NCBI GenBank assembly: GCA_964374105.1
Contig: CAYJXI010000001.1
Span: forward strand, 7,743-71,742
Direction of reading: 5' to 3'
Length of the DNA stretch: 64,000 bases
Source: an uncultured Planctomycetales bacterium
GTDB lineage: Bacteria; Omnitrophota; Gorgyraeia; Zapsychrales; JANLHA01
The number at the start of each line of letters is the position of its first letter. Positions within the stretch are counted from its first letter, which is position 1. The translations under genes were made by a program, and so were the position numbers. Under the pieces are notes generated by a model. The model did not search any database. It saw nothing but the letters and a program-made list of their open reading frames with translations, and was not told the DNA's origin. This document shows positions 9,601 through 42,600 of the stretch, in pieces.

Positions 9601-12600
9601 TCGCGAAACCATTCATACTTACGCGACTTTGCAGTACACATTGGTTGACCATGTCTATCAGCGGGTTATCAATGATCAAGAGGTTTACCGAAGATTGAGG
9701 GACCTCAGCCAAAAGAAAGATCGATTTGAGGACTTTAATCAAGAGATCATTAAACTCGTTCATGAGGTGGTCAAGGAACTGAAATTAGGGATCACAAAGC
9801 GTGAGATTTACAATATCGCGGAAGATCTCTTCAGCTACGAAACGTATATGAGAAGAGAAAAAGGCCGCACTGATTCTGGAGCGAACCCCGCCCCATTTGA
9901 ACCAACACAAGACGAGAAGTCTAGGTATGAACCTTTAAGATTTTCCATGAAAGTCATTGATGGGGAAAAAGGCGAGGTCTCAGTTATAGAAGACGTTGTC
10001 CGATATTGGACACAAAAACATGCGGATGTCTTAAAAGACCTTTATGAACGAGTCGCTTATCTCGCCTTGGCTCCACCGGTTATTATTACCTCTGACTTTG
10101 ATAAGACAAGAGGTTCAATTGCCGCCTATAATTCCGCCGAAGGTGTCCTCTATATTCATCTTTTTGTCTTCGATAAGCTGGTTTCCATTAAGCATCTCAA
10201 CCTTATCGGTCGGTTTGGTCAACTCAATCATGAATATAAATCCGCCTTCTTAATGTTTTTAAAAGGAGTTATTGAAGGCCACGAGCGGTTCCATATCGAG
10301 GGCATTTTAGACGAAGGGTTAACCCGGCAAAAGACCATTCAATATCTCAGTCAATGGGAACATCGAGAGGTTCTTTTGGCCACTCGTCAAATTTTAATGG
10401 CTAAGAATATCTTTGGTGTTGAGACACAGGAAGATTTCTTTGTTACTATTCATGAGCTGGATGATTTCAGCCTTACCCGTCTGACGATTTTCGATAGTAC
10501 TCTAAGCGACTCCATCCACTGGGATTTCAGTCTGGAACTCCTGGCACAGAGAGAAGGCATCCCGGTTACCCATCTTAAGCAGAGGCTTAATGGCAAGACC
10601 ATAATGCTGGTTGGTATTAATAGTAACAGCATGATTGTTAACTTGGCGCGTCTATTGCCAGCGAGCTCAATCATTGTTGTCAACCCCGACAGCTCAATTA
10701 TTTCTGGTGAGGTCGCAAACGTCCGGTATATTCATGATGGCGTTGAAAACATCGCCCGGTACTCAGTTAACGGGGTTGATCTCATCTTCTCCTCCGGGCT
10801 CTTTAATGAGGATTATCCCGGGATCAAGCCGCAGCAATATCCGGCCTTTGCAAAGGCTATGAAGGAAAGTCTTGCTGCTAAGGGACTCATGCTCATTGGC
10901 ACTGGTCTTACGGGTAATGAAGTATTTGAGAAAGTTTTACGGACAGAAGATTTATTCGTAGAAAAATTATCTGAGATAGGAAGCTGGATATATCTGGTTA
11001 CAAAGCAAGATACAAGTGACAGTCACTCCCGCCAAGGCGGGATGACTGTCCTGCCTGCCGGCAGGCAGGTCACTTCTGGAACTCGAGTGGCATTTAAATT
11101 TATTAAAGGGCTGTTGCAGGCTTCGCTTGCTGTCATGCATGTTTTGGGGCAAGCGGTTCAACCAATGCGTCACCTACCGTGGCTGGTGAGGCGCATTGTC
11201 AAGAGTTATTCTGTAACAGCCCTTCCATCTATATTTAAGTTCTTAGCCAAGATGGCGGGTGTATTAGCCATACAAATAGTTGGCATGGGCGGCGGGAATA
11301 TCGGGGTGGTTTTGGTTATTACCACGCTGACATTCATTGTGCTTTGGGGAGGCTATAAAATTTCCAAGAATGTTAAACAATTCGTTGATCAGGAACGCCA
11401 ATACTTAACCAGACTCAAAGAATTGGCTGAAAGACTGAAAGAAATTGGTCAACGGATTCCTGAACTGGAAGAAAAAGCCAAGCGATTGTCCCCGGAAGCC
11501 CGAGATGCGGTGAAACAAGGACAGGAGAAAGTCTTAGCGGCCGTTGCCGGCGATCATTTTGAAGAGGCGTATGAGCTTCTTGAGCATTTATGGCAGACAA
11601 TCGAAGGTTATATGAACAATCTCATCGGCATTCCGGATGAATTGAAATATTTATTAAAGGAGCAGGAAGCGATTAACCAAAAAGGCAAGGCTATTGAGAA
11701 ACAACTTGTTTCCTTACGTAGCAGGGTTTCACGGTTCGTTGAATTCCTCTCTAGTCGCCTCCATAAACAACTGCGCCAGGAAGAGTCTGACCTTATTGTC
11801 AGCTGTTGTTATGCAACACTAACTTTTGATTTCGCGGTCCATGAAGCGGAATATCAAGCCGAAAGTACTTTGCGTGATATGACCTATGTTTTGAATTATC
11901 TTATCAGCGAATACACCCATGTCTTGAGAGAGAAAATGGAAGAAAGGAATGAGGTCGCTGTACTTTCCCCTGAGCAGATTGCACTCTATCACGAGCAGTA
12001 TATCGAGAAAAATATAAGACCAAAGATTGCCAGAGAAATCACGAGAGAAAAAATCAGTCCACAGAAGATTGACCAGCTTTTGGCCTATTTGAATGAATCG
12101 GCCGATCATATGGTCGAGGTTATGCCTCGAGGGGCGCCGGAAGAGGTACTTAAGAAAGCCAAAGAATTAAAGGCCAAGAGGAGCGCCATAGACAATTACA
12201 CATTAGAGGAAATTGCCCGAAGATTCGATTTCTGTAAGGCCTGCGCCCCCAATCAGGTTTATGGAAGGATCATCGCGGCGTCAGAACGGGTGGGTCAGTT
12301 TGAGAGAATTGTTCGCTTCAACCAGAGACTCTATGACTTAAGCGAAAAGATTGAATATATCGGCACAAAGGTCGGTGTTGATGTAAACCTTAAGCGTGGT
12401 TTTTCCAATCTTGAGCATACCTTCGGTTTGACGTCACCCCTGGAAGGCCTGGCCCGAGAAATTCTTTCCATAGATGATATTAAGCGCTGGAGGATTGTCA
12501 GAGACAGCGAACTGGCCAAGAAACGTTTTGGCGGGGAATTTTTAAGTCAAGTCAACGAGGCTTTGTTTAAGTTAATTGTCCATGACATCTTTGCCGAATC

Positions 12601-15600
12601 CGGCCACGATTCCTGGGAAAAGACCGCACGGGTAAGCCACTTGGGCGATTTACAGCATCCGGAGAGTATCGGTGCGTTATATTTGGTTTCCCTGCAGGGC
12701 GGGCACACCGCGGCCCACGCCATGGGGGTGTTATATGACCTATTAAGGGATGAGGAGTTCTTAAAAGTCCTGCCGGTGGCCATAAAAGAAAAGGTTCAGC
12801 CTTTGATCGATCGTTTTGCTCAAGCCGAACCGTTAGACCATTTTGACTTCTATACGATTGGCTGGAAGTATTTTGGTCTTGCCGAGGCGGCAGTTGTGCA
12901 GGGCTTAAGAAGCGATGACGCTAACTACCGTAAGCAGGCGATCGGCGCGGCTGAGGTTGCCCCGTATGAAGCTGATCTGCCTGAGCTCTTGAGTGAGGTT
13001 CGACGTCTTTTAAAGGAAGGATATGTTACCGATTTGACAAGATTCTTAGAGGATCGGATGGCTTCTCCCGTGGGTCCTGTGGTTGACATTGTTCGTCATT
13101 ATGTTCGTGATCAAAATGAGTTTAATGTCCATATTAGGCAGATCATTGAGATTGTGGCCTCGGCGGTCAACCGCTTCCGGGACACGCTCGAAAATCATCC
13201 CGAGATTCATAAGATGCACTTGGAAGAAAAACCAGACTATGTTGGTGTCATTGAGGAAAGAGAACAATTACAGAAAGAGTTAAACAAATATGTACCAGCT
13301 GTCATCAATCTTACTCCAGAACAGGCAGTGGTCCTTGATTTATCTTATGAGGAGGTTATGAAGACAACCGCTTCACTTCTTGTTTTGGGCAACGATGAGC
13401 GCTGCCGCAGTTGTCTTTTCGCCAACCTTGAATCAGGGGACTTATTTAAGAAAGAGGCCGCGGCCAAGGCGGTTGTGATGCCCCATAACCGAAAGATTGT
13501 TGGGCCAAAGGCCATGCTCCCGATCTTGAGAATTAAAGGTCAGACACAGGATCTTGAATTAGAGGGAGATATCCGTCTCTATCTGTCTGATGTCATCGAA
13601 GAGAACGAAGATTTTGCTCAAGAAGCAAGGCGTTATCTTAAAGAGACATATTTTGCCGGTTATCCGCCAGTGGCTGGATTTATCAATGCACTTGAAAATA
13701 GAAAGGCCTTAGTGAGGATCCTCGATGTCTTAGAAACGATGGGCGCGGAATCGTTCGTACAAATGGCTCTCAACCAAGAGAGGCTGGTGGAATGGTTGAG
13801 TCAGCAACTGGATTTATGGCTCGGGTTAATGGAGTTCAACACGATTTTGGGTGTCGTTTTGGGTAAGGAGGCGGCCTTAAATATCATTGAAGATATTATC
13901 AATGATATGAGGACATTTGCCGTTACCAGCTTGAAAGAAGTTCCTTATCGTCTGTTTATTATCCGTGAAGACAGACCGAATTTCTTTGTCTCGCTCATTG
14001 ACTATATCAGGGTGAGATTAACCCCGCGTAATCAAATAGTCGTGTTAAGAGAGCTAGGCCGATCGGCAGAGATGGTGATTAACATGGATACGACACCTGA
14101 TCAGCAGATTGTTCGCCAGAACTTTCATTTGGCGATTGTTATTTCTAAGATGTCAGCTTTGGCGTTTGGTGCCCAGTTTGTAGTGAATAGTGTCAAGGAG
14201 GCCACCGAACCCTTAGAGCGCTTGTTTGGTAAGGATGAAAAAGCCTCTCTGGTTGAATTACTGAAGGTCCTGCGTGAGATCCTGGAGAGATTGGATAAGG
14301 GAATCTATGCGGCTATCAATGAATTCATAGCCGATGTCCAAAGAGCGGTAGAGATTAGAGATGGTCTGTTGAAAGCCATTCAAGAATTACCCGCTGTGCG
14401 TGCGGCCCAGCAGCGCCGCAAGACCCTCGGCCAAGAGATCGGTCAACTGCGTAAGAGAATGAAAGAATTAAAAGAAGAAGGCCAGAAGCAAGAGTTAGAA
14501 AAGCAAATGGCTGGTTTGATTGACGAGCAGCGTTCCCATCAGGAAATTACCGATCAAGTAAATGCTGTCAATAAGGCTATAGATTTGACTTACCTTAGTT
14601 CTTTGAGTAATCAGCTGAAACAGAAATCTTCGTCGCTCGCCCAACAGGTTGAAAAAGAAGGTGTCTTAAGCATTAAGGGACGATTAGAGCAATATTTTGA
14701 ACTCTATCAAACCGAGGTCTTATTAAAAGAGTTGAGGGACGTCAATAGAAAGGTCATTACAACCTTCTTAAGTGAAGGGCAAGCAATACCTGTTGAATTA
14801 CCAAAAGATTATATCATCACCAATGAACTGAATAATCTGATTTTTGGCGCTTACCGGGCCAGAGAGGCCGAGGTCATTAGAGGAATCGTCCGGCCGATGG
14901 TGTGGACTTATATCTTTGAAGGACCGGCGGCCGTAGCAGAAAAGCTTTATTCACCACAAACCTTGGCACAACTTAAGGCTCTGGGTTATCAGAATCCGGA
15001 AGTCCTCAAAGAAGGATTAAGGATAAGAGGCGAGGTTGAGCCACCGGCTGATTTGTTGGCCGTCCGTCAGCACCGTTTGAATCTGGAAAAAGAAGAACTC
15101 CGTACACTTTTTGCCCAACTGCCGGTAGAGCTTGTCGAGTTGGCGAAAGAGGCTGGTGTAGAACTGGCTGAAGGCGAGGGAGTGGATCACTTTGCCCAGT
15201 TAGAGAGTGGTAGCTTGGAAAAGATTTATGCGGTTCTTAAGCCGTCAGAATTTACCGATTCTTACCAAGATGTCTTAGCTGATATTGAGACCCATATCGA
15301 GGCCATGAAACGCATCGAGGCAGAAATCGGTACGGCCACAGAAACCCGGCAGCCAGTGGATGTTATCGTTAGCAGCGATGTGGTGGAGAAGGTTAACATG
15401 GGTGTTGGGTTTGCTTCGTGTCTGTGCGTCTTAACCGGCGGCAACCGCCACAGCGCCTTTGTCAATGCCTTTGAACCCAATAAACTGGTCTTTTATGCAG
15501 TCAATAATAAGGGAACAAGGATCGGCCGGCTCTTAGTGATTCTCACCGATCAAGGATTGCTTGTCCACCGCGAATATAAGAGCACCACCTTGAATCTGGG

Positions 15601-18600: not shown

Positions 18601-21600
18601 TATTCCTGATTTCGAGGAAGGGTTGATCGAACGAGAAATCCGACAGTTAGTTAATGATAGCAACAATCCGCAAATCATAGACAAGATCTTGGAGGAAATG
18701 ACTAACCTGTGGCTTAACCAATGGAATCGAAAGCCGGGCGTCTTACAAAATCGGATTAATGAACAATCTCGATTGTCTCAAGAGATCCCATCTCTCAAAG
18801 AGAAGTTGGCAGATACGTTGAAAGACAAAAAAGATTTATTGATGCTTCGACCAGGCTCAGCATCAATCCTGAGCGAAGTCGAAGGATTGAGACTCTTTAA
18901 GACTCAAGCAACAAGCCCGAAAGAATTCTTATCATTCGCTGAACAGTTAATTCAACTGACTAAGGCTTCGGATGAACGTATTTCCCAATTACCCAGTGCG
19001 ATTAAGAAAGCCATCCGAACGATCATTAAAAAGGAAGAACGATTGAGCGAATTACCTGCCGAAATGGAAGAACTGAGAACCGAGATTAAGGCCTCCCAAG
19101 AGAAGTTTAGAAAAGAGATGAATGAACTTAAGCCGATCTTTAGATACATCTACATCGCGATGAGATTGCAGGTGATTTACAGCAAAGCTGTCCTTGCCTT
19201 GGAGAAGGATTCTCATCAATCCAATGCTACAAGCCAGGAGAAAAAGTCAGATAGCATCATTAGAGAAAAAATAAAATCTCAACCTAAGCCAGTTACAAAG
19301 AAAACCAATCGAAAAGGAAGATCATCCCTGAAGGCCATAAGTGAGGTTTATGGTCTAGTGCTTGTCGTAGGGCTTGTGATTTTAGGTGTGATAGAGCTCA
19401 TGCGACAAATCCAAGAGTCGCAATGGACCTTGGGTGAGCGGTTAAGACAAGTTCATCAAACAATAAAGAGACTCTTGCCTTTCCGTTGGATGGAAGTTGC
19501 AGGTTCAGGTGGCCTTTCTTTCCCGATGTTTATGGAAGGTATTTTAAACAGAGGAATAGGTGATAATCCATTTTTGATTCATGGCCGAGATGAACGATTA
19601 ATGCTGCCGGTATTTGAACAAATGGCGGATGCGCTTGAAGAACAATTGCTGGTAGCAAGTACAGATTTTCAATATTTGATTCACATTGTACAGAATGGGA
19701 AGAATAAAGAGAACCGTTTAAGGGCCTTAAAGACCTTGATTAAGATCCTGCTTGATCCCAACAAAGAACCTGCTTTGTTAAAGGCTGAGGGTCATCTCAA
19801 TGATAATGACAAACAAGCCTTAATCTCCACAAGGATTCATCAGGCCCTCTTTACTGTTATCAATACTGAAACTGATAAGGAAATTCAAAGATTGGCTTTG
19901 GAGGCGTGGGTTATTAATTCAATTGAATTGCTTGTGGAAAATCGTCATCAGGGGGATTCAGGGATTGTTCTCAATAGAATGTTACGCGAGGTCCTTGCCT
20001 TGAAGGTCGCCCGTTCTCAACAAGCCAATCTTGTCATGGAAGTCCTTGATGCCAAGATAAAACAATCCCCAGATAAGGACTCTCAAGAAGTTATTGAAAT
20101 GATGGATTGGCTAGAGAAGATCATCGAAAGAATCGATGATCTAGAAGAAGATGATGATATTGAATATCGAGGGTCATCGGGACTTAAGGCTTTTGGAACT
20201 GTCAGTATGATCATCCTTTTGGTGGGTTTAGGGACAATTTGGATTTACAAGAAATTTGCCCAAAACAAACACCCGGTGTTTGGCGGTGAACAAAACATAA
20301 GAGGTGAAGAAGTTTCTCGGAGAAAGGTATTCAAATGGATAGGATTAACCGCGGTAGCCATTGTTCTCAACTGCACAGGATGTTCACTAATCTGGCCACC
20401 CAAAGCACAGGATTTTGTACTTGTTAATTATGCGGTTGAGCCTCTCAACTGGGCTAAGATTACGGGGGATGCCCGAGTTGTCTTTTTGGGAGAGACCGAG
20501 CACTTTTCTTCAACCGATAAATATCTTGTTGCCAGATCTCTCAAAGAATTGAAGACATTAGGAATCACCCATTTGGCTCTGGAGAATTTGGAAGTTCATA
20601 CTCAGGATATTGTTGATGCGTATTTAAGAAAGGAAATTCCGTTATCCGAAATGGAGGAAAGGATCAGATCAAACCGGCTCCAAAGACCTAATGGGGAAAT
20701 TGTTTTACCGGCGATTTATCTGCCAGGATACAGAGAGATCTTCCAAAATGCCCAAGCATTAGGGATTAAAGTCATTGCCTTAGATAAACCTAAATATGAA
20801 GAACACACTATCCGGGAGCGTAATCTTCAGTGGGTAGAAATTATTTTGTCTATCCTTAAGAATGACAATAAGGCCAGGCTTTTAGTCATTAACGGCAATG
20901 CCCATTCGAATTATCAATATAGATTCCTAAGAAGAACAAACGCCTTTTATGCCATCCCCCAAGAGTTAACGCCAGTTGTCCCCGAGGCCATTCAAAACGA
21001 AGGCTTCCCAGTGGTCGTAACACAAATGGCAGGTATTGACGGCTCGGACCTCCCAAGCTATAGACATCTTATTATTGAGGCGGTAAAGAGATATGCTCAA
21101 GATGATAAGCGAGTAAAACTTGACCAGCCGCAGATGATGATTCCCCGCGAAGGGTTTGTTGATGAAATTTGCGATTGTTACATTTACGCCCCAGCCGTAA
21201 CGACTCTTAAAGCCTTTGACCCGGTGATCGGTTTGATTATGTTCCTTGGTATTGCCGGGTTGAGTTTATTGAAGAGGTCAAAGGTGAGGTCAAAGGTGAC
21301 TGTCACCTTTGGTGACAGTCACCTTTGGGCAAGGCGCTCGTTCCTAAGGACAGTCTTCGGGCTAGGGACAGCTTTAGGATTAATGCCATTTGCTCCAAAG
21401 AAAGCTCACGCAGAATTAACCGTTGATCAAAACCTGCCACCTGATCTGCGCCAGTTGTTTGAAATGGTAATCCCGATCGCACAAATCATGTTGACTAGGG
21501 AAATAAAAACAGAGGACCAGGAACTTAAAGAGCTCTCGAGAATTTCCCATCGATTCCTCTTAGAACCCGGCGTCAAGGTGACCTTTACCGTAGGTGATCT

Positions 21601-24600
21601 TAACCAAATCATCGCTAGTCAATCGAAAAACGAAGACGATGAGTATAGAAGAGAACTCATGAACCGACCCGATGCTGCCGCGCGGGCCATGGTGACCAGC
21701 TTAGGGGCCAATCGTTATGTTGTGACCTACGACTTTAGGATGATCAAGGCAGGGATGGCAGCCTTGATTACCGGGCTTGCTCATGAACTTATTGCTCACA
21801 CTTATATCATGGAGAATATGAAAGAAAAATTATCACCTCTGGAAGAGGAGAGACTCGCTTTTGCTTTGGAGATCAAATATATTGAGGTGCTGTTAGCCGA
21901 CCGCGATCTGGTTGAACAGATTACCTTGGGCGGCAGGAATTTAACGATCTACAACGATTTTAGAAATCTATTGGAATTTGAAAAAGCCACCCTGGCTTGG
22001 ATTGAAAAGGAAATAAAACAACAGAAGGCCGCGCAATTAAAGAAGACAATCGCCATCATTGGTGCAACAGCACTGACAGCGGGAGCAGGCGTCTTAGGGA
22101 CTTTACAGGTCATCAAGTTAAGAAGATTCAAGCGCGTTCGTCTCGTCTTTGATGCAATCAAGGGTCAAGGGGCATTTGCTCAATTGGATAAGCTTTTACG
22201 AAAACAATTAGTCGCCCAGTTTACAAAAGGTAATCGTTTCGAACGTGCGACCTTAAAGCAGGCCGGGCTGTCCACAACCCAGAGAGAAGAATTTAAAAAG
22301 AATTTATCCCGGATGATGAGTGAAGAGGAGGAAGACGAAGGGAATGAAGGCGGAGTGATGCTGGGAAGCGGGAGAGGCTTAAGTGCAGTGCAGGAGAAGA
22401 TGGTGAATCAGGCGCTGGTAGAGAGCGAGGTGAAGGAGGTCAGTGAGGAGGAGTACCGAACATTGGATGCGGGAGGCGAACTAAAGTCCGAAGGGGTGGT
22501 GATCCATAAGGTGAGCGGGTTGAATGCGAAGATCGAAGAGATCGGGCAAAGAGAACATACGATGTTTGGGGATGAGGTGGTGACGTATGCGAAGGTGAAG
22601 GAAGATGGGAGCAAGCATTTGTACTTGGATGAGCGGGAGATGTATGTGGTGATGAATCTGAGTGAGAGGTTAAGGAGGCAGTGGGGAAGTCATGAGTTAT
22701 TGCACTTAAAGCAGCCGATGCTGAGTGAAGAGCTGGTGCAGTTGCAGGTGCCAGTGGATGAGGTGTTAGAGGCGAGGGCGAAGTATCTGGGGTATGAGAC
22801 AGGAGAGGTGAAGGCCTTGGCTATAGTGAGGAAGGAAGGGGTGAAGGAGAAGGAAGTGAGTAGTGCGATGGCGGTGGCGAAGGAATATGGGGTAGTGCCA
22901 TCAAAGGTATTGGCGTTATCGAAGAAGCATGGACTGCCGGTGGTATTGACGGGCGAGGCGATGGGGCTTGCACAGAGGTATAAGACGACGATGAGTCAAG
23001 TAGCGTTGTGGGGCAAGAAGTATGTGGGGATTTTGAATAAGGCGGGGTTGAGCCGGGAAGAGATCGATGAGATCTGGCGGACGTTAGGGTATGAGCAGAA
23101 GGAAGAGGTGTTAGATGCGATCGAGAAGATATTAGAGATTCATCAGGAGATCGAAGAGAGTGAAGTAAAGTTTTCGATGAGTGTGATAGAGCTGGTGCGA
23201 GCGTATCGGGTGGTAGGGGATATGGATGAGCTGCGGGAGCTGGTGCGGATTGCGATCGAGCATCCGATGAGCGGGCGGGGATATGGGCAGGTAAAGCAGC
23301 GGTTCCCCGAGTATGCGAGATTTAAGAAGCTCTTGGAGATATGGGAGGAGTATGTGGAAGCGGGTCATCCGATCAGTGCCGAGATCATAGAACAGATGTT
23401 TGATAAGAAAGGGCGATCGCGGTGGGTGAGTGAGGAGGAGGAAGGTGAGGAAGAGGAATGGCATGAGGGCGGGGTGATGCTGGGAAGCGGGAGAGGCTTA
23501 AGTGCAGTGCAGGAGAAGATGGTGATGCAGGCGCTGGTAGAGAGCGAGGTGAAAGAGGTCAGTGAAGAGGAGTATGCTGCGTTGGATGTGGGAGGAGAGT
23601 TGAAGTCCGAAGGAGTGGTGATCCATAAGGTGAGCGGGTTGAATGCGAAGATCGAAGAGGTTGCCCAAAGGGAATGGACATCGTTTGGAGATCGGTTGAT
23701 CACGTATGCAAGAGTAGAAAAGGATGGCAGTAAGCACCTGTACCTGGATGAACGAGAACTGAACGTGATTATGTATTTACCATCCCGCATCCGTCAGCAA
23801 TGGGGCAAACATGAAATGGGTCATCTTAATCAACCATCTTTACCTGAAGAAAGGATACAGAAGGACGCTCCCATTGAGGAAGTCCTTAATTCACTAATCC
23901 ATCCAACTGAACCTATTGTCAAAGTATATGATGAACTCGGCGGGTTGAAGATATCAAGGAAAGATCAACTCTTTAAAGATAAAGAAGGAAAGAAGAGGCC
24001 GTATACCCGCAAGGGCCAGGTGTTACACACCTTCCATCTTGCTGTCCAAGAAGATTTGAAAGCAGTTATTGATCAGAAGATTCTACCTGCTCTCACTACA
24101 AAGAAAGCAAAAGCGAAGATAGAAGAAAATCTTCAGCTGATATTTAGACAGACCGGGGAATTTGGGAATATTAAAACGATCAGTATTTCCAACGGGATGT
24201 TGACCCCACTTTTCTTTGAAGAAGACCGCACTTACGTAGATGTGAGCCTGTTATTGATGCCTTCCGCTCCCTTTAAGGAATTATTGAGATTGGGTTCTGC
24301 CCATGCCTTTGAGAAGAGCCGAATATATCGGGTTCAGACGAGTAAAGGAAGCTTTATTGATGAGTATAAGGCCGATAGTGTGAGTGTGTTTGAAGTGGCT
24401 TTAAGTCTTCTAGCGGCGGATGAAAAAGTGCTTAAGCAACTGGAAGAGGCATTCAAGAATTTAAGCAAAGCTAATTGGGAACTTTCAGTTTATCAAGAGC
24501 TTATCGATGCCCTGCGGTATTTAAGAAGCCGCTTTGTCGTACAAAAGTATTTGTTAAAGGCACATAACATTTATGACATTTACGATTGGGAAATAGATCC

Positions 24601-27600
24601 ATTTCGGGATCGGTATGTGTTGAGTCAACAAAGAAAAGAGATATTAACCCGGGCGATCAAACTAAGAGAATCCTTACGAGATATTGTCGTAAGAAGAAAG
24701 AACATTATTTTGAGATTATTAGCCAATGATCCAAGATACATTGAAAAGAACAAAGAGAAAGAGAAAAAGAAAGAAAAAGAAAAGCGAAAAGCCATCAAAG
24801 AGCTTGCCCGCAGGAAATTCCTCTTACCCAGAAAAGCCGAGGTTGACCGGATAGCTCATCTGTGGGAAAGGCCGTATGAACAAATCGGCCAGGCCTTGAT
24901 TTCCTCAAGAAATCATCATTACTTGCAAATTATCCGATTAGTGCCCGCAGAGTTCATGCGGCTTTTGGGCATTCTTATCGATGCACGTTCTTTATCCAGT
25001 CATCTTCTTAAGAGCGGTTATACAAGGAAAGAGTTAAGCCAAGGATTTGGGATCTTCTTTAACCAAGTTGGAACAAGTCATGTCTCCATTGAAAGTCGGT
25101 ATAACGAGATGATGGCAGCCCTCATTTTATATCGCGGGGCTTTTAGCGAAGATCTCTTTAAGGAAATCTTTGCCCAACTGGAGGTTGCCGAAAGAAAGCA
25201 ATTGACGTCTTATTTAGGAGAACAGGTTTCGCGGGTCATTAACTATGAGAGAACTTATATGGGAATCATCAAATATCTTGCGATGTTCCCAGGAGCAACG
25301 GTAAAAGATTTGAAGGCTCAAGGATTATTTGCGGAATTGTTCGATCTGTTTATTAAGATTCACACAATGACCGTCCAGAAAGAAGAAGTCATTGAGCTGA
25401 CAGTCAAGGAAATGCGAATCAAGGCAAAGAAAGTCTTGATGACAAGACTTCTCTCCCGTTATGGTTGGGCCTTAGGGTTATTTTTAGCTCCGGGATCAAG
25501 GGTTGATAGAAACCAAGTGATCTCTTTTATTGGATATTACAAAGAACAAATTCACAGGATTGTCGATTTTTATCTTGACGGAACATTAGTGATGGATGAA
25601 ATGGTTTTAGAATCCATCAGTCATTTATTGCCTTACCTAGCCCTGGAAGGTTATGACAAGCGATTAGGGGTGGTGAGAAAGAAAGTCAAAGATTTTGGAT
25701 CACTTGAACGATTGTTTAGCGTGCCGTTGGAGTCCCCAAGTGAAACTTTAGCTGTAGAAAGGGCAGCGGTAAAAGCCATGTTAACCGCAGGGGATGAAGA
25801 GACGTTACGAAGGGTATTTAATGACTTGAAGAACTTCTATCAGACCCAGCGTAAACCAAAAGAAATCATTGCTGATTCCGCCATCGATTATGCCTTGGCC
25901 CTTATTCAGGGGGTACAAAAACTTTTACAAAAACCTGTCACTCAAGAACAACGGCAAATGGTCGCATCGATGGTAAAGGAGATTGCCTCTCATCTGATTC
26001 ATAAAGAGTTAACGATTACTTCAATACAAACTTCCATGGAAGAAAAGGCCAAACGGATCATCACCTCCATTCAGAATCTCCCTCAAGAGATTTTAACGGA
26101 AGCGCTGAAAGTGTTGACCGATCATACCATTCTTGATTTTATATTTTTCCGTGATGAAATGGCGGTTATCCGAACCGATGTGCTTAAAGTTGTTGATGCA
26201 GAAACCTTAAGTAATTATTTTTCAACCAAGAGCGAACGGGAGGTGACTTCAAGTCTTGCTCCTATCAAAGATAATATCTTGAAAAAGAAGGTTTTGGCTG
26301 CCATGAAGGCTACAGAAGTGGGTAAGATGCCCGCGATGGCCAAACATGTTTTAAGACGGGAAATTTACCTCAGGGAGACTATTCATTTACCCAAAGAGCT
26401 GACCGCTTATTCAGGGGAGGCTGTCCCGAATTATTACGCTATCTTAGGAGTTCCCATGAAAGCCACACCTTTGATGATAGACCGATCATTCAAGGCGCTT
26501 TCCTTCTTGTATCATCCTGACCGGGCTCAACCTTCTGAGAAGGCCAAGGCCGAAGAGGAGTTCAAACGGATCAATGAGGCTTACCAAGCGCTCTCTGATC
26601 CGCAGAGAAGGAAGGAATACGATGAGAGTATACCCAAGTATGCTTACTACTATCCGTCCAAGCCATGGTTAGAGTCGGATGTGGATCTGGATGCTCTCAT
26701 AGCCGAATCCGTGGTTTCGGAAAAGAAAGAAAAAGAAACGCCAAGCGAAGGTCAATACAAAACCAGTCCGTATCTTCCAGTCCGCTTGAGTGATCTTAAA
26801 AAATGGTCGAAAGCCTTGAGTGAAGATTTAGAAAAAGAAACTGGAGAAGCAAAAGAGCCCAAGAAAAACGAACCCCAAGGTCAAGGAGGGGCGATCCTTG
26901 CTTCAGGAAAGAGTTTGAGTGCTAAACAAGACTCGATTATCCGCAGGGTATTGAAGGAAGCTGAAATTGAGGGTACCGATATCATCGCATTTCGTATCCT
27001 TATTACCGAAAGTCCATTATCTGGAATGAATGTCAGAATCCAGGCCATCAAAGATTTCAATCTTAAGATCCGCCAATTGGCTGAGGAAGAGCAAGTGCCA
27101 TTTAAGGACAGAGTCGTGACCTACGCTTATGTAGATAAGTCAGGCGTAAAATATCTCTATTTAGATAAAATGGAGAGGGAGATGATCATTCATCTTCCTA
27201 AACATTTGCGTGATCAATGGGCAGAGCATGAAATGCTGCATCTTGAAAACCCAAGATTAACGGAAGAAGCAGTGCAAAAACGAGCTCCTATTGAAGAATT
27301 CTTGCGCGCCCTCTATCCTCCCGAAGAACCTACCATTAAAGTTTATGATCAGTTGGGAGGGTTGAAAATCACAAAGGTGTCATCGACGTTTACTGATATT
27401 GAAGGTGTAACGAAGGATGTTTCCTTCAAGGGTGAGGAGATCAGCACTTATCATGTTTCCTTAAGGCCAGATGATGCGAGGCATTTAACGAGAGACTTTG
27501 AGAAGATTTTACATCGTCGAATTAATAAACCCAGTTCGGAGAAGATAGGATGGAATTTTAATTTCTTGACGGGGGAGATCAGCCGGTTTGGTGCGATAGA

Positions 27601-30600
27601 CAATATCACAATCGCTTACGGAATGAAAACTCCGTTCTATTTGGAAGAAAGTCATATTTATATTGATTTTAGTGTGCTCTTTCTTACATCGGCAAATCTT
27701 AAGGCATTGTTCAGATGGTCTTGGCTTCATGCCTTTGAGAAAGCCCAAGTCTTCACCCAAGATGAATATTGGGCTGATGCGGTTGGTATCTTTGAGACTG
27801 CCTTAAAGCTCCTACAGGAAGAAAAATTAGAATCGTTAACATTCATAAAGCGGGCTCTCCGTGAATTGAAGATGATGGGCTGGGAGGTCACTGCCTATCA
27901 AAAATTATTTAGGGCGATTACTAATTTGAGAAAACGGGAAGATATCAAACAATACCTGTCCCTCCCCGCACATTTCAATCTCGGGGAATTGATCCCGCTT
28001 AATTTGTACCAATTGGCAAAGATTGAGAGGGCGAGTAGGTCCCAAGGAGAGCCTATTGTTCGAGCCGATAATTTAAGGAAAGCGTTAAACGAGATCCTGA
28101 AGAAACAAAATATCCTGTTGCCCTTGCTGGATCAGGATCCCAGATACACCAAGAGACCGCTCGAAGAAAAGGAGAAGATTTTAGGCCAACTCGCCGAACG
28201 GAAATTCCTGTGGCCTCGCAAGGCGGAAGGTTATTATCTATCTTCCCTTTTGGATCGGCCTTACGCAGAAACAGGACGAGCCTTGACCGCCACGGTTAAC
28301 ATCAACGTTCTTTGGACTGTCCGGATGGTTCCTTTAGAGTATCTGCGTCTGGGAGTTCATTTAAGAGAGGGTTCCCAAGTCGGCCAAGAACTCGTCAAAA
28401 TCAGTTCTACTCGATATGAGATTAACCAGTTCTTAAAAATTTTCTTTGTTGAGTCTAGTAAAAATTATCTGGTTTTCCCCGGGCATCACCGTTTTCATAT
28501 GAATAGTTTGGTGTTATTGAAGTCGGCGTTTGGAGAGGATATTGTGGATGAAATATTCGCCAAAAGAGATTTGAAACAGAGAATGGATTTACTCAAATTC
28601 TTTGAAGAATATCTTTTCATGATGCTTGTTGGCGATGAGAAGAAATACCTTAAGATCTTGCTTTATCTGTATGACAATCCGGGCATTGAATTTAAATATC
28701 TTCTAACGATTTTTGATGGGCGTCTAACACTTAAGTCATTGTTTGAACTCTTCAGTAGGCTTAACAATTCCGCTTTATCAACCGAATTTTCAACGGGAGG
28801 AAGTATCATCGCAACCGCAAGCCGCATTTTATTAAACAGGCTTATTTTCCGATACGGTTTAATTTTTAGTCATTATCTGACTACGGATATTGAGGTGGAT
28901 AAAAATGAGCTCAAGTTCATCTTGAGGAAAAACATTCCAGAATTCCGGCAGCTTCTTGAGTATTACCTTACAATGACAACTAGGGAGGACGAGACGACTA
29001 GGGAGGCCGTCAACAAGTTAGTGAACCTCTTATTGATCGAACCGGATTCATGGCTATTGGAAGAAGTGCGAGGAAGACTCAAACAGACACTGGATTTCAC
29101 CTCTGACTTTAGCCGAGTGTTTGCCATTTCCCTTGAAAGTACGGAACCGTTTTTAGGTTCTGAAAGGGCAGCGATCAAAACTCTGTTGGAGCTGGGAGAT
29201 TATGAAATGATAGTCACGATGTCAAGCAGATTGGAGAATTTTTACAGCATTCATCGACAGACAGCTCAACGTATTTCCGATCATGCAATTGATTATGCCC
29301 TCGCCCTTGTGGTGGGAGCTGTTCAATTGCTTAAGATTACAAAAGATAAGGCAAGGCGGTTAGTTGTCGAAGAAATCTTAAAACAAACAGTTTTGAATTT
29401 GGTGAATTATGAACTGAGCGAAGAAACAGTTTATGGACAAATAGCAGAGCGGGCTCAACGAATCATTAGAATTTTACAATTCATACCAGAAAAGGTATTC
29501 CAAGAAGCCCTCAAGGCATTGGCCCAGATGAGGATCTTAGATGTGATTTTCTTCCGTAAGGAAATGGCATCAGTCAGGGCCGATGTGCTTCGCATTTTAG
29601 ACGCGCAAGTCTTAAGCGCTTATTTCAGTCAAAAGAGCGAGAGGGAGGTTTATGCCAGCCTTACCGAGGTTAAAGATGCTCAATTAAAGCAGCGGGTATT
29701 GGCAGCGATGAGAAAGACAACGGGGGGAGGCATAAAGACCATGACCACTCATGTGCTAAGAAGAGAGATCTATATTAAGGCGATGATCGGCTTACCCAGA
29801 GAAATCACTAATTATTTTGGGGAAAAAGTTCCAAACTATTATGTTATTTTGGGTGTCCCGAGGCAAGCCACTTCAAAAGACATTGATCGATCTTTCAAGG
29901 CATTGGCCATGCTCTATCATCCTGACCGCGCCCCGGAACCGGAAAGGGCCCAGGCTCATCAGGAATTTAAAGTCATTAACGAGGCCTATCAAGTCCTATC
30001 TGATGCAGAGAAAAGACAGGATTATGAAAATAGCATACCCAAGTACGCCCATAGGTATCCCGCCAGTCCTTGGCTATCCGCGGATGTTGATTTGGACGCC
30101 ATTCTAGCCGAGGCAGAAGCTCTCATTAAACCCAAAGAGAAACCCGCTGAAGTTCAAAAAGAAAAGATAGAACAAAAGCCAATCGAGTATCCTCTTGTCT
30201 TAAGAAGCGATTTTTTAAGATGGCAAGACAGTTTGCGTTTCCTTAAAGAGGAAAAAGAAGAAAAGAAAGAAAAAGATACCGAAAACCAGACGCCGGGCCT
30301 ACCCGCAGGACAGGCAGGCACCAAGGGGACACAAAAAGGTGATCTGCCTGCCTCGAATAAGGCTGCGCCATTTACCGGGCCTGCCGGCCAGCAGGAAAGT
30401 CATCGAAAAGATGATTCTACCGCCACCCGCAGCGGTGAGCCGATGAGTGAAGAACAAGAAGGGAACTTCCGAAAATATCTTTCCGCAAAGGTCAAGGGAT
30501 TTAGCGGCTATAAAATTGTTGAGGAAGGTCACATTGAGGCAGTGATCAAGGCCCTGGCCGATGTTAGGCTGGAAGTCTTAGCCGATCGGTTAGGGCAGCT

Positions 30601-33600: not shown

Positions 33601-36600
33601 GGCGATCCCTGAAGTTAAGGAAGAGGCAGCGACCGGTGAGGTCGTGAAAGAAATTTCGATACTAGCTTTTGAAGAAGTTAAGATCAAAGCGCCAAGCGTG
33701 ACTGAAGAACAGAAAGAGTTAACCGCGGAAGAATTGTTTGATTCCGTAATTCAAGAAATGGTTGAGAATATGCAAGTTTATATTGAATTAGAAGCTGATT
33801 TTGATGATTTCTGGACCGAAGTGACATCTGGGAAAAAGATTTCTTCTGAGGTGGCGCAAGCTGTCCGCCGGCGGTTGATTAAGGAGTTTGACGTGCATGA
33901 TCCTCAGCAATTTTTCAGTGTACTTATGGCCAGTCATGGCAAAAAGTATGGTTCTTATAAAGAGTTGTTTGAAGCCACAAATGTAAAGACAAAGGTGATA
34001 CGAAGAATTGATCGTGCTTATAAGCGCTTAACGGGCTTAAGTTTGATTGAAGCGACACAAGGTGGGGCAGAGGGAGAGGATCAAGAAGAGCAAACCCAAG
34101 AGCGACTTCCCAATTACTATCATCTTATTGGTATGAATACCCGAGGCCGCGCTGAGGCGCCGACACAGGGCGATGTTCATCGGTTCCTCTTAGGCAAGAA
34201 GCGGCTGACAGGTGAGTTAAAGGGACTAGCCAAATGGCTCGAAGGTCATCTTCCGACTTATCAAGGCGATACATTAGAAGATTATCGCAGAGAATGGACC
34301 AGGGTTTACGGTAAAGAAAAAGGTTCACCCAATCGTTCTGAACCAACCGCCACCCGTTCGGGTGAGCCGTTGAGTGAAGAGCAGAAGCGTCAGCTGAGGG
34401 AATATCTTAAACTCAAGGTTGGGCAATTCAGCAGTTATGCGGTTGTCGAAGACACGGCCATTGATACAACTATTAAAGCCCTAGGTGAGGTTGCCTTTGA
34501 AGTCTTGGCGAGTCGCTTAGAGCAACTCAAAGAAACCCGTAAAATCCGCGCCGGGCCGAATGAGATCTTTAGTGAACTTCAAGCTCTCGGCATTGCCTTG
34601 TTAGCATTCAATTATGAAGAATACGTCATTGTCCATCCGGAATTACTCGCCGCAGAAAAGCAAACCCGTCTAAGGCAGATTCTTGCTCATGAAACTGGTG
34701 CGATTTATGGTCTGGAACATCAAACCAATCGATTATTAGAAAAAGTCATCACTCAAGAATTGACGGCTGAAGAAAGGGAAGCGATCCACAACGAAATTGT
34801 TAGTTTGGCTCAGCCAGAGGAAGAACAGTTAAGATCCTTCCGCGAGCTTATCTTAACGAAGATCACCAGTGACGCCATTAGGCAAAAGGCAAAGCAGATA
34901 TTAACCAAGGCGCGATTAAGGGCCCTCTTACAGCCATCAGCTAAGCATTACACCAATGAATTTAAGCCCATTAAAGATATTTTTGAAAATTCACGATACG
35001 GAGAAACTATTAGATTAGTCAAAGAGGATACTAAAGCTATTGTTGAGGCCGTCAAAGAGATGAAACACATCTTGGCAGTTAATCCACAGAGCCATCTGTT
35101 TGACATCGAACAATGGGATGAAAGGGTCTATGCTCCTTCCATGAGAGGAATGTTCGATCAATTTGAGAAGAAATCACTGACCATTGAGGGACTTAAAAGA
35201 CAGATGCAGAAAATAGTAGAGCCATTTAGTGTAGCCTTTGATCTTACGGAATTCATTAAAGAAAGCGAGGAGCTCGAATTCTATCATTTGGTTGAGATCG
35301 GCGCTTGGGTTTTAGCCAAGATCATTATTCCGCATGGGTTGGTGATTCAGGTTTCTCCATTTGAATCCAACAAGCTGATTAAGGGCCGGGTCCTTAAGGA
35401 TCGAACCGAATTGATTACAACACATGGGGCAGGATTCTCAAGGCAGATTCCGGTTTATACCGTTGATGCTAAGATTTCCGAATTTGGTTCAGGTATTGCT
35501 AGGCCAGATTACATTGTCATGCCATTGAATCTCCAGCATGAAGAACCCCTTATTCATTATCAAAAGCTCTTTAAGGCCTATAGGGAAGGCCGTTATCGTC
35601 CTAAACCGTTTGATATTGACCCGCACGGCTTTTTGCTGGATTGGGTGATGATCAACCTGGTTGGATCCAAGACGACAAGTGAGGTACAGCAACTGCTTAG
35701 AAAAGAGGCACTTCAAGAAGAGATCGCCCATTCCGATACCTTTGCCTTTGTGGAAACCCTCTGGGACAGGAAATATCATTACTTTATGAGGAGTGAAACT
35801 ATCCAATTTGTCCATACGATTTTAGAACCCTCGGGCTGGTTAAGAGAGATGTTCAATCAGCATAAAGAGAAGCCTGCTCTTCACTCACTCACTGCTGATG
35901 CGATTATTGAAGTAGAGGCCAAATTGCAATCTTTGATGAAATCACCTTACCCAGCCCATACGGTCTTGGAGTTCTTGTTAGCCAGTCTCTTCCCTGAAAC
36001 TGCCAAACTTGAAAAGCCCCAATACAAGGTTGCCTATAACACGCTGACTGTTTTGTTGGCCGTCGAACTTTTGAATAAGCCAACCATTGAACTTAAAGAC
36101 TGGTTTGATTTCCTCAAAGAGGTTTACCGGGATCTTGATTTGTTCAACAAACTCCTACCGGAAACTGCAAAGGAAATTTACGAACGGCATTTCTACAGTC
36201 AAGAAGAACGAGTAGCAATTCTAAAAGGAAAAGGTAACAGTCACAAAGAAGCTGGCAGGTCCCTTAAGGATTCTAAGGAAGGGCCGCAGACACTCGCCGC
36301 GTTTGAACCGCTGACATTCATTGCCTTGTTAGCGGGTTTTGGGATTTTAGGAGTTTATATGACCAGATGGGTTGCCGGCAGATTCAAGATCAAAGGGTCT
36401 GATCAACAACACATGCACCGGCGTGGATTTATAAAATTAAGTTTAGGAACTATGGGCTTGGCGGCATTCGCTCCGTTATTGACATGCTGCTCTTTAATTC
36501 CAGGTTCATCGCCGCGTAAAATTAACTCAGATCATTTGATTCTCATCGGTATGGAACACAATGTGTTCGGGGATCCGCAACATCCCGCGAGTGTCTTGCA

Positions 36601-39600: not shown

Positions 39601-42600
39601 GTTGGCCTTCAATTTCGATGTATGGTTGGTTGTCCATCCAGAGTTGCTTAACCCCGCCGAGCAAACCAAACTTCAAGAGATTCTTGCCCACGAGACCGGT
39701 GCGATTTTCGGTTTACCACACGAAGTCAATCGACTTCTAGAAAAAGTCACGACCCAACAACTCACTCAAGAAGAAATCCAGGATCTTTTTGATGCCGCCC
39801 AGGAGATCCTTAAATCACAAAAGATGACTCCCAGAAGTCCTGCTGGCCGACAGGAAAACGGAGCCTATCCTGCCTCAGAGAAGATCGCAAAAGAAGATAT
39901 CATCATCTCAGTGCCGTTGTTCTTCCTGGAAGGGACGGCGTACAATTCCATCCGGAAGTACTCTCTTCGACTAGAGAAGCTCAGAGGGATTGGTCCTCTC
40001 ATAAGAAGTGGACGATTCTTTATCTCTAAGTACTTCCTGCCAGAACTTATTGGTGTGGCTAGAAAATTACAAGAGCGGAAGGCGAATGCCATTCATTTTG
40101 ATGTTCAACAAAAAGAGGGAATACAAAGATTGGGAGTCCTCGGACAGGATATCACTAGGATCTATAATCCCAAATTAATCCGGCGGTTACGCCAAAACGG
40201 CGTGACCCTTCCCATCGAGGTACATCTTATGTATTGGCAACCCTCTTCCCGGTATTTGAGGGCTTACAGGCAAGCGGGGTTAGGTTCCCAAGATACCATT
40301 TTCATTCATCATAACGCTTACGAAGATCCTAAGGAATTAGTTGAAAAATTGGCGCTGATCCGCACCCTGGGGATAAGAGCGGGTATTGCCTTGAGTCTCC
40401 AATACGGCACTGAGGAATTGACCGAAGAGATGTTGATTTCTGCTGATGCCATTCTCTTGTCGGCGGTAATGGAAGGAACACGTGGAGGGACATTTGATTC
40501 CCTGGTGGCTCAGAAGTCGAAAGAAATTTTATCTAGAAATTTCCAGGGAAGGATCCACATCCAAGGCGGGATTAATAAAGAGACTATTGGAATTGCTGCC
40601 TCAGGTGGGGCAACGGCTTTCGTCTCCGGTACGTTTGTGACCCAATCACCGGATATGACAAAGGCCATGGGGATCTTAAGAGAAGAGGCAAGGAAAGGAT
40701 ACAAACAAATAACTGCCGGATACCAGGCTGTGCGTAGCGAGGGGATGGATAAGGTGTCTAGTCTTAATTTTGAGGTTCTGGCGGGCAAGACTGTCTTAGT
40801 AACAGGGGGCGCTGGCTATATCGCCGCTGGTGTTATCCATGATCTATTGAAGGTGAATACCGAGGTGGTCATTTACGACAACTCTATGCGGGATCGGGAA
40901 GAAATCACCAAAATGCAAGGTATCACGATAGTGGAAGGGGATTTGAGCGATCAGACATTACTTGAAAGAACGCTTAAGGAGCAAAGAGTTGCGGCTGTTG
41001 TCCACTTGGGGGCCTATATTGCCGCAGGGAACTCTGTGAAGAATCCTGGGAAATATTTCTTTAATAATGTTGTCAACACCCTGACCCTGTTGGATAGCAT
41101 GGACAGGGCAGGGGTCAAATACCTTGTGTTTGCCTCCAGCGCCGGTGTCTATAGCGGAACCCTATTCAATGAATCAGGATTATTGGATGAGAACATTACC
41201 CCGGATCCGCAGAATCCTTACGGTGAAACCAAATATCTGATGGAACGCCTGATGCAGGATTATACAACAAAGAAAGGGATCCGGTTTGTGGCTTTGCGTT
41301 TCTTCAACGTCGCCGGGGCGTTTGAGTGGCAAGGAAGATGGTTCGGCGAAAACCATGAAGGGCCTGAGACTCATCTTATCCCACGGGCGATTAAATCTTA
41401 TTTATATGGGAATGAATTGATCCCATTTGAGCTTTTTGGTACAGATTACCAGACACGTGACGGGACGACAATCCGAGACTACATTCATCTTTTGGATTTG
41501 GCTGATGCCCATATCCGGGCTTTGATTCATCTTTTTAATGGGGGATTGAGTTTCATATTGAATCTAGGGACTGGTCAAGGGTCGACTGTTCGGGAAGTCG
41601 TTGAGGGGGTAGCTAAGATTATTAAACTGGAAGAAAACAAGGAGTTCCGAGTTAAAGAGGGGCCACGGCGTGCAGGAGACCCGCCCATCTTGCAGGCCAG
41701 TAGCCAGAAGGCCTTAAAGCAGTTGGGCTGGCAGGTTAAGAGAGATTTACAACAAATTTTGGAGGATGCCTGGGTTTTCCATAATCTAGAGAAACAACAC
41801 GGCTGGTGGAATTTGAAGACCATCGCCCCCGAAGATCGCCTGACCACAACTGAGGCTGAGTTTAGAACAATGGTGACTAAGGAGTTGAAAGCGAATGCGG
41901 TCATCACACCGCAAACCCGGTTTGAAATTCTCTTTAGGTTGTTGATTGATTCGCTGGTTGAAGGAGTTAACGATTCTACATTTAAGTCTTCAGCACAATC
42001 CAGGGCGTTAGTCGAAGGAGCCAGAGGACTCAAATCCCAGCCGGGCGAGTTGATGGAAGTCATCCACAGCAACGAGAAATTCTTTGCTGATTTTGAGAAG
42101 TTCTTAGAATCCCAATTTGTTTCAACGGATCCCTCCCGCCTAGAAATCATATCTCAACTTAAAGAAGACCTTTCCTCAACAACTCTTGGCGGGGAATCCA
42201 ATCTAGCGGACGTGAGCGGTCATCGTGGAAGCCCAATCCCCAGCCGATTGGCCGAGATGAGGAAGAAAGGGAAGGGAAAAGAGGATCATCATCCTGAAAG
42301 AAAGATAGATCCGAGGGAAGGGCCCAATGGTCTTTCTGCGTATGAACCGTTAGTTATGCTTGTCTTGTTGGCGGGAGTGGGAATCTTAGGAATTTATAAG
42401 AAAAGGTGGTTTGCCAAGAGATCGGCTATCTTTGAAGGGCGTGTTGATCATCAAAGAGAATTTGAGATTATCGATCGGATTTATTCTTATGTCTTATCTG
42501 GTATTGCTCGATTCCAAACCACGTCAGTACTATTATTAACAATAACAACATTCCTAGTGCCATTTCCAACATTTTACTTGTCTCCATTGTTCTTGCCAGG

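Follow-up and report, generated by a model that had tools for sequence, protein, structure and literature searches.

The 64,000-nt stretch of Omnitrophota DNA analyzed here (the window; GenBank contig CAYJXI010000001.1) is occupied by one giant open reading frame (ORF), within which two tandem units, R2 and R3, each carry at their C-terminal end a J-domain, the signature domain of Hsp70 co-chaperones. Read from nt 2 to nt 64000 on the + strand, this frame runs through 21,333 codons without a stop, compared with 893–1,653 stops in the other five frames. Because the stop-free frame spans the whole window, the gene is longer than 64 kb and runs past both window ends. Pfam matches and hydropathy point to a multi-pass membrane, multi-enzyme protein. 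The Pfam domains include ChaN/Tiki (aa ~6823–6940), GNAT (aa ~10675–10733), ribulose-phosphate 3-epimerase (RPE; aa 13355–13546) and NAD-dependent epimerase (aa 13598–13922), together with PRK, cytidylyltransferase and starch-synthase/GT1/phosphorylase-like (GT5/GT1) domains, and cysteine makes up 0.1% of the residues. The protein was initially annotated as a membrane megaprotein, in keeping with the ~30 transmembrane (TM)-like hydrophobic segments that a hydropathy scan finds clustered along the ORF; none within R2–R3 is convincing. With at least 21,333 aa, these TM-like segments and matches to PF08323, PF00534, PF00583 and PF01370, the ORF fits the traits of Omnitrophota giant proteins, and by its sequence features it matches the inner-membrane-anchored 'multi-enzyme metabolic cluster' class of these giants (10.64898/2026.06.07.730766).

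R2 occupies nt 23393–26782 (aa 7798–8927) and R3 nt 26783–30235 (aa 8928–10078), both on the + strand, and both consist of an HExxH module, a helical body and an extended J-domain. Self-BLASTP aligns aa 7798–8939 co-linearly with aa 8928–10078 at an offset of ~1,130–1,139 aa, with E-values of 1e-50 to 7e-102 for 400-aa chunks, and a MAFFT alignment gives 40% identity over ~1,130 aa. The HPD motifs of the two J-domains are 3,405 nt apart. Near the N-terminus of each unit lies an HExxH motif, at aa 7937 (nt 23810) in R2 and aa 9076 (nt 27227) in R3, and the Pfam J-domains follow at aa 8810–8874 and aa 9945–10009. The initial annotation had placed two ~3.4-kb tandem units at nt 23461–30290 (aa 7820–10097), co-linear over ~1,130 aa and each running from an HExxH module to a J-domain; that description stands essentially as made, with the boundaries refined to those given above. 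Upstream, a partial unit, R1 (nt 22298–22801 on the + strand, aa 7433–7600; HExxH at nt 22691–22705), consists of an HExxH module only, which aligns to the N-terminal modules of R2 and R3.

The R2/R3 duplication is old, since four-fold synonymous sites of the two units are saturated (0.31 identity). A DNA self-comparison likewise shows no DNA-level repeat between R2 and R3, and these two results together rule out recent tandem expansion as their origin. R1 and R2 differ in this respect: nt 22322–22621 is 83% identical to nt 23441–23740 over 300 nt, which suggests local gene conversion or more recent partial copying. The GC skew of the surrounding DNA reaches 0.44 at nt 22001–24000, an extreme purine/G bias whose source is the Glu/Gly-rich linkers. 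R2 and R3 are joined by a charged linker of acidic and basic residues that contains neither a signal sequence nor a TM segment.

The HExxH module spans nt 23468–23926 on the + strand in R2 (aa 7823–7975; HEMGH at nt 23810–23824) and nt 26873–27346 on the + strand in R3 (aa 8958–9115; HEMLH at nt 27227–27241). In an alignment of 12 copies, the conserved positions include S10-G11, H118, E119 and H122, the last three at 90% or more, and the AlphaFold2 model of the module has a predicted local distance difference test (pLDDT) score of 84.9. The module has no Pfam family and no sequence relative in the PDB, and a Foldseek search of the model returned nothing significant, the top match, to the minimal metallopeptidase selecase, having an E-value of 0.053 and a low template-modeling score. 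We treat the module as an orphan domain with a possible metallopeptidase-like site.

The J-domains are identified with much greater certainty. PF00226 matches over its full length (model positions 1–63 of 63) at nt 26429–26623 in R2 with 67.1 bits and at nt 29834–30028 in R3 with 73.5–75.2 bits, against a cutoff of 27.8 bits. Each match lies within a longer extended J-module, nt 26339–26701 (aa 8780–8900) in R2 and nt 29744–30106 (aa 9915–10035) in R3, both on the + strand. The HPD tripeptide is found in the helix II/III loop of both copies, at aa 8838–8840 (nt 26513–26521) and aa 9973–9975 (nt 29918–29926), and is invariant in all 14 members of the extended-J subfamily described below. The best sequence matches in the PDB are to J-domains of bacterial DnaJ proteins: that of Thermus DnaJ2 (E=2e-16) and those of E. 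coli DnaJ, among them the DnaK-bound chain 5nro_B. The R3 module with its flanks is modeled by AlphaFold2 with a pLDDT of 91.3 and a predicted template-modeling score (pTM) of 0.84, and Foldseek superimposes the model on 5nro_B with a template-modeling score of 0.90 and a root-mean-square deviation of 1.7 Å. In this model the N-terminal flank forms an extra helix and a β-hairpin, and the tail is ordered up to a conserved Trp. The J-domain assignment and the intact HPD loop, both taken from motifs alone in the initial annotation, are therefore borne out by Pfam, NCBIfam, PDB matches and the fold model. A profile built from the R2 and R3 copies detected no third or degenerate J-domain in the ORF. 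HPD strings at aa 1096 and aa 15795 were rejected as J-domains, as they belong to a cytidylyltransferase-like region and to one of a pair of ~265-aa repeats, respectively.

Both copies retain the residues of E. coli DnaJ at Y6/Y7, L10, G11, K26, H33-P34-D35, R36, F47, K48, Y54, L57, D59, R63 and Y66, and both have F at the position of Y25. The NCBIfam DnaJ, CbpA and TopJ models match over the J portion only (1–64/68), with DnaJ and CbpA scores far under cutoff, and by matching to the DnaJ and CbpA models the G/F (Gly/Phe-rich) region, the zinc finger and the client-binding domain are absent. We can therefore rule out a class A or B DnaJ and place the J-domains in class C. The J-domain is also the best conserved part of the unit, with 65% identity between R2 and R3 compared with 38% elsewhere; persisting at saturated synonymous divergence, this conservation indicates that both copies are under selection. 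Sequence and model together establish R2 and R3 as carrying genuine class-C J-domains, from which a capacity to activate Hsp70 would follow. Activation itself, the identity of the Hsp70 partner and the compartment in which the two would meet are three things that we infer.

Neither the unit nor its J-domain is peculiar to the giant protein. The R2/R3 alignment, used as query for an exhaustive HMMER search, returned 72,411 matches, of which only five reached E≤1e-30, and the hits were then re-analyzed locally. The architecture recurs in P0151 (MFC1570573.1), a 3,599-aa 'J domain-containing protein' from the Candidatus Omnitrophota metagenome-assembled genome (MAG) GCA_042567115.1, in which four HExxH modules are followed by body segments and one J-domain; it is 34–35% identical to the J region of the window, flanks included, and the closest relatives of the unit come from this MAG. 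P0151 is thus like the window in the order of HExxH modules, body and extended J-domain, but it is a free-standing protein with a signal peptide, four HExxH modules and a single J-domain, whereas the window has two complete units within an ORF longer than 21,333 aa. Proteins P0002/P0152 and P0007 have an HExxH module ~55 aa from the N-terminus and a J-domain ~1,300 aa further on; P0005, P0010 (5,237 aa, from a Planctomycetia MAG) and P0019 combine the body with a J-domain; and a 2,395-aa ORF in the metagenomic locus L005 has two HExxH modules and a J-domain. P0001 and P0004/P0153 carry four to five HExxH modules without a J-domain. The unit is accordingly, by sequence, a fused copy of a family that exists free-standing in proteins of 1–5 kaa.

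The extended J-domain, which occurs in Planctomycetia, Verrucomicrobiota, Bdellovibrionota and Omnitrophota MAGs, has in alignment an N-terminal flank with the pattern ..REVY....LP.., then PN[HY]Y[AV][IV]LGVP, the HPD and a tail with the pattern IPN...YP...W..LP. It closes many proteins of ~940–1,140 aa and of ~240 aa, always 3–6 residues before the stop. The tail thus ends proteins elsewhere but leads here, through a charged linker, into the next unit, which gives R2 and R3 the look of once separate, complete genes joined head to tail. A group of ~225–245-aa proteins (L025, L046, L054, L058, L068, L095, L110 and others, L095 and L110 being from Planctomycetia MAGs) start with a strongly basic stretch (MAKKK..), carry the extended J-domain at their very end and look like an uncharacterized family of cytoplasmic J-domain proteins (JDPs). 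On a 104-kb contig from the Logan assembly of SRR23592399 (L004), genes of 13,098, 2,331, 1,823 and 3,411 aa, the second of them encoding a J-protein, lie on the same strand with gaps of 112–211 nt. This array resembles a fragmented giant gene, or giant genes whose parts have not been fused.

If the J-domains act on an Hsp70, the partner does not appear to be encoded with them. Searches with blastp and phmmer --max found no Hsp70 within the ORF or the window, and no DnaK gene lies beside any of 22 extended-J loci (212 kb covered). In the same scans, DnaK was detected next to four canonical CbpA-like J loci that served as a positive control. The lack of a dedicated Hsp70 in the ORF or beside its relatives suggests a housekeeping Hsp70.

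The established role of a J-domain with an intact HPD is to trigger ATP hydrolysis by Hsp70, and class-C JDPs bring Hsp70 to the sites of its clients, such as ribosomes and translocation pores (PMC8215388). We accordingly take R2 and R3 to be sites, built into the chain, at which Hsp70 is loaded. In the interpretation that we favor, and to which we give close to an even chance, the J-domains would draw DnaK of the producing cell to the giant chain as long as the unit faces the cytoplasm, either ahead of insertion or export or while these proceed. Through helix II/III and the HPD loop, the J-domains would dock ATP-bound Hsp70 and set off ATP hydrolysis, upon which Hsp70 would clamp unfolded polypeptide adjoining the J-domains. 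The J-domains might thereby act as co-chaperone sites that hold neighboring segments soluble and competent for insertion or export. Contact with DnaK could occur during the long synthesis of the chain, during membrane insertion or ahead of export, and the stay in the cytoplasm could be permanent or transient. As the J-domain lies at the C-terminal end of its unit, the rest of the unit would leave the cytoplasm ahead of it. Recruitment of the cell's own DnaK accounts for the constraint on the J-domains, for the missing dedicated Hsp70 and for the C-terminal position of the J-domain.

Several features of the locus also favor the cytoplasm. The block that contains the J units also contains the GNAT domain, and the block that follows contains the RPE and NAD-epimerase domains; enzymes of these three kinds normally need cytoplasmic cofactors. 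A TM-like segment ~80 aa before R1 (nt 22046–22105 on the + strand, aa 7349–7368; Kyte–Doolittle hydropathy 1.81, flank charges +5 and +6) is directly followed by the basic cluster KLRRFKRVR, which favors a cytoplasmic location for its C-terminal side. Finally, short proteins of ~240 aa and ~1,000 aa that lack a signal peptide bear the same extended J-domain, so this type of J-domain works in the cytoplasm of its producer in at least these members.

Four sets of observations weigh against a cytoplasmic encounter with the cell's own DnaK. The first is that Sec-type signal peptides are predicted in all eight unit-type homologues, that is, those sharing more than the J-domain with the window. These were scored with a simple heuristic, not SignalP; seven of seven unit-type proteins pass, and P0153 brings the count to eight of eight, compared with none of 11 J-only relatives and eight of 127 other J-domain hits. 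Examples are MHKPFLRNISAVLVVSFMLQDISWA followed by A in P0010, a segment ending in LAVLMLADTAAWA followed by A in P0019 and, read from an upstream Met, MYRTARKLVSLCIVICFIFTQTEYAFA followed by L in L001; the signal peptide of P0151 is likewise N-terminal when the protein is read from an upstream in-frame Met. Since most of these homologues have no TM segment between the signal peptide and the J-domain, their J-domains should end up outside the cytoplasm.

The second concerns TM hairpins that recur three to four times in the ORF, in each of which a TM segment of what we call type A (..A[FY][ED]P..) with a basic cluster is followed ~20–30 aa on by an RR-type or lipobox-like segment. The pattern is seen at junctions at nt 20189–20401, 21206–21394, 36293–36514 and 42332–42397, and the RR-type segments read RRGFIK...LLTCCS, RRKVFK...LNCTGCS and RRSFLR...PFA. 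The hairpin 5′ of the units (nt 21206–21394 on the + strand, aa 7069–7131) pairs a type-A segment (AFDP...) and basic cluster with the RR-signal-like RRSFLR...PFA and gives sub-threshold Loki-CTERM and PEP-CTERM matches; the next hairpin 3′ of the units (nt 36293–36514 on the + strand, aa 12098–12171) pairs AFEPL... with the Tat/lipobox-like RRGFIK...LLTCCS. By the positive-inside rule, such hairpins would place the short loops in the cytoplasm and the large soluble blocks outside it. The type-A motif, with (G)L.A[FY][ED]P and a K/R cluster, looks in sequence like a PEP-CTERM-type sorting signal, and the recurrence of such junctions suggests that the ORF may be secretory precursors strung together, or a polyprotein that is processed. 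The NCBIfam matches of the hairpin segments are all under cutoff: TAT_signal_seq at 14.3 (cutoff 16.7), PEFG-CTERM at 13.5 (25), Loki-CTERM at 11.9 (19.9) and PEP_CTERM at 8.6 (16), the TAT_signal_seq score being that of the hairpin at nt 36293–36514.

The third is that only two of the five basic residues through which E. coli DnaJ touches DnaK in the co-crystal (R22, K26, R27, K48 and K51; PMC8215388) are kept, K26 and K48; R22D, R27A and K51N are the same in both copies. With two of five contacts kept and the charge at R22 reversed, the J-domains may have low affinity for a DnaK of the E. coli kind. Relatives retain more of the five residues than R2 and R3 do. The fourth is that a C-terminal J-domain is made last and so is of limited use for chaperoning during translation.

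Taken by itself, the positive-inside rule yields contradictory parities for the ORF, which hinge on whether aa 6449–6467, 7113–7131, 7349–7368 and 11763–11782 are TM segments. The side on which the J units lie is set by two weak candidates among these, aa 7113–7131 and aa 11763–11782, the latter (nt 35288–35347 on the + strand) having a Kyte–Doolittle hydropathy of 1.45–1.71 and containing E, K and H. The Sec signals of the homologues and the hairpins resembling signal and sorting sequences make an extracytoplasmic location plausible. Nielsen & Lui call the topologies of giant proteins predictions only (10.64898/2026.06.07.730766).

The initial annotation had already proposed two roles, help with folding or translocating the chain itself and capture of the Hsp70 in a target cell. 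The strongest competitor to recruitment of the cell's own DnaK develops the second and takes an extracytoplasmic location as its starting point. By analogy with known effectors, the units might be displayed on the outer membrane face or released, as their homologues with signal peptides would be, with the J-domains relocalizing or exhausting the Hsp70 of a prey or host, as HopI1 of Pseudomonas syringae and exported Plasmodium J-proteins do; we consider this somewhat unlikely. It draws on the bias of the Sec signals toward unit-type homologues, on the hairpin pattern, and on the TM segment at aa 7349–7368, which occupies, relative to the first HExxH module, the place that the signal peptide has in free-standing homologues. 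Furthermore, the HPD is kept even in homologues that appear to be exported, so that these must meet some Hsp70, and the divergent basic patch could mirror a non-self Hsp70. There is precedent in HopI1, which stimulates host Hsp70 via its J-domain (PMC8150971), and in Plasmodium Hsp40s such as PFA0660w (PDB 6rzy), whose exported J-domain meets the Hsp70 of another cell. The J-domain of HopI1 is C-terminal, as in the units, but HopI1 travels by type III secretion rather than with a Sec signal. In the predictions of West-Roberts et al., the majority of the domains of these giants, glycolytic enzymes included, are extracellular, and the giants are tied to predation, although these authors themselves doubt the location prediction (10.1101/2023.11.21.568195). 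Against an exported effector, a delivery route into the target cytoplasm is not evident, there are homologues in MAGs of Planctomycetia and Verrucomicrobiota that are not known predators, and the same blocks contain cofactor-dependent enzymes of cytoplasmic type. In addition, the topology inference contradicts itself, the authors of the published predictions concede that these are unreliable, and the signal peptides depend on a heuristic.

In a broader formulation, the J-domains would act on prey or host Hsp70 outside the producer's cytoplasm and the ORF would string together secretory precursors with host-manipulating modules, either as a chain anchored in the membrane or as a polyprotein that is processed; this, too, seems to us unlikely. 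Processing as such, in which the ORF is a chain of precursors, each with a signal peptide, a passenger and a C-terminal sorting signal, and cleavage by signal peptidase, by a sortase-like enzyme or by the HExxH modules of the ORF frees R1–R3 as a secreted or surface J-protein resembling its free-standing homologues, is quite improbable. Processing would make sense of the three to four junctions at which an [FY][ED]P motif, a TM segment and a basic cluster have RR-type signal-like segments right behind them, and the top NCBIfam matches there are specifically C-terminal sorting domains and a Tat signal model, but every one of these matches falls below its cutoff. The units end where the homologues end, 3–6 aa past the YP..W tail, and on L004 the J-protein homologue is a separate gene in the same-strand array; the R2–R3 boundary, however, offers only the acidic/basic linker, with no signal or TM segment at which to cut, and the HExxH module has no protease family match in Pfam, the PDB or Foldseek. 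That the J-domains are a relic of a fused gene and have lost their interaction with Hsp70 is very improbable: both copies lack three of the five basic DnaK contacts and have no Hsp70 gene in their vicinity, but within the unit nothing is as well conserved as the J-domain, despite saturated synonymous sites, its HPD is invariant in 14 family members and its model shows a confident canonical fold.

Recruitment of the cell's own DnaK has counterparts among known proteins, and class C already provides examples of a J-domain set in a large multidomain protein or a membrane protein (DjlA, Sec63, sacsin and TopJ). E. coli DjlA and other membrane-anchored class-C JDPs tether a J-domain to the inner membrane, lack the client-binding domains of DnaJ and use housekeeping DnaK (PMC8215388). 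DjlA differs in being small, with a single TM segment and one J-domain, and the window gave no match to the DjlA family. In eukaryotes, Sec63/ERdj, Pam18-type proteins, sacsin and DNAJC13/RME-8 are large or membrane proteins whose J-domains place Hsp70 at a translocation site or on a giant scaffold, with both Hsp70 and ATP present on the J-domain's side of the membrane. These proteins are related in sequence to the window units in the J-domain only. Shewanella AtcJ (PMC6715715), whose model NF050028 was matched in the NCBIfam scan, combines a J-domain with a short conserved C-terminal extension of ~20 aa, but it is a 94-aa cytoplasmic protein and the IP..YP..W..LP tail of the window is unrelated to it in sequence.

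The closest counterparts to the ORF as a whole are the multi-enzyme giants and Archaeovorins of Omnitrophota, which share with it a length of more than 10 kaa, many TM segments, PF08323, PF00534 and PF00583 domains and diverged internal repeats (10.64898/2026.06.07.730766; 10.1101/2023.11.21.568195). Neither preprint text, nor the one supplement covered, mentions DnaJ, J-domains or PF00226. As far as we checked, J-domains in Omnitrophota giant ORFs, the family that combines HExxH module, body and extended J-domain, and the Sec signals on members of that family are undescribed. The family would thus be a previously undescribed group of J-proteins of the Planctomycetes–Verrucomicrobia–Chlamydiae (PVC) group, with secretion signals on the larger members that are unusual for bacterial J-proteins.

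Two questions about the Omnitrophota giants are how chains of 20,000–150,000 residues fold and insert, and whether their enzyme-like domains face the cytoplasm or the outside. Because a J-domain works only beside an ATP-driven Hsp70, it can serve as a marker of its compartment. The partner and location of these J-domains would separate a built-in co-chaperone for the biogenesis of giants from an exported module that hijacks Hsp70. Were the prey- or host-directed reading to prove right, this would be the first Sec-exported family of bacterial J-domain effectors.

The rest of the ORF contains further repeats. A second HExxH module, unlike that of R1–R3 and with the pattern (I/V)FEGHE.FH..G..E.EAR, occurs five times, at nt 1073, 4328, 6005, 7265 and 10280 (aa 358, 1443, 2002, 2422 and 3427), the copies being 37–49% identical over 150–240 aa. 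The 3′ end of the window, nt ~52334–64000 (aa 17445–21333), is made up of ~5–6 diverged tandem units of ~700 aa each with 22–39% identity and no Pfam match. The ~265-aa repeats form a tandem pair (aa 15736–15999 and aa 16019–16278) with 37–39% identity, distantly like the cytidylyltransferase-like region at aa 1059–1230. A module of ~160–240 aa is present in four copies (aa 5241–5461, 10059–10293, 11442–11599 and 13100–13308) at 41–59% identity, and one of these copies starts directly after the tail of the R3 J-domain.

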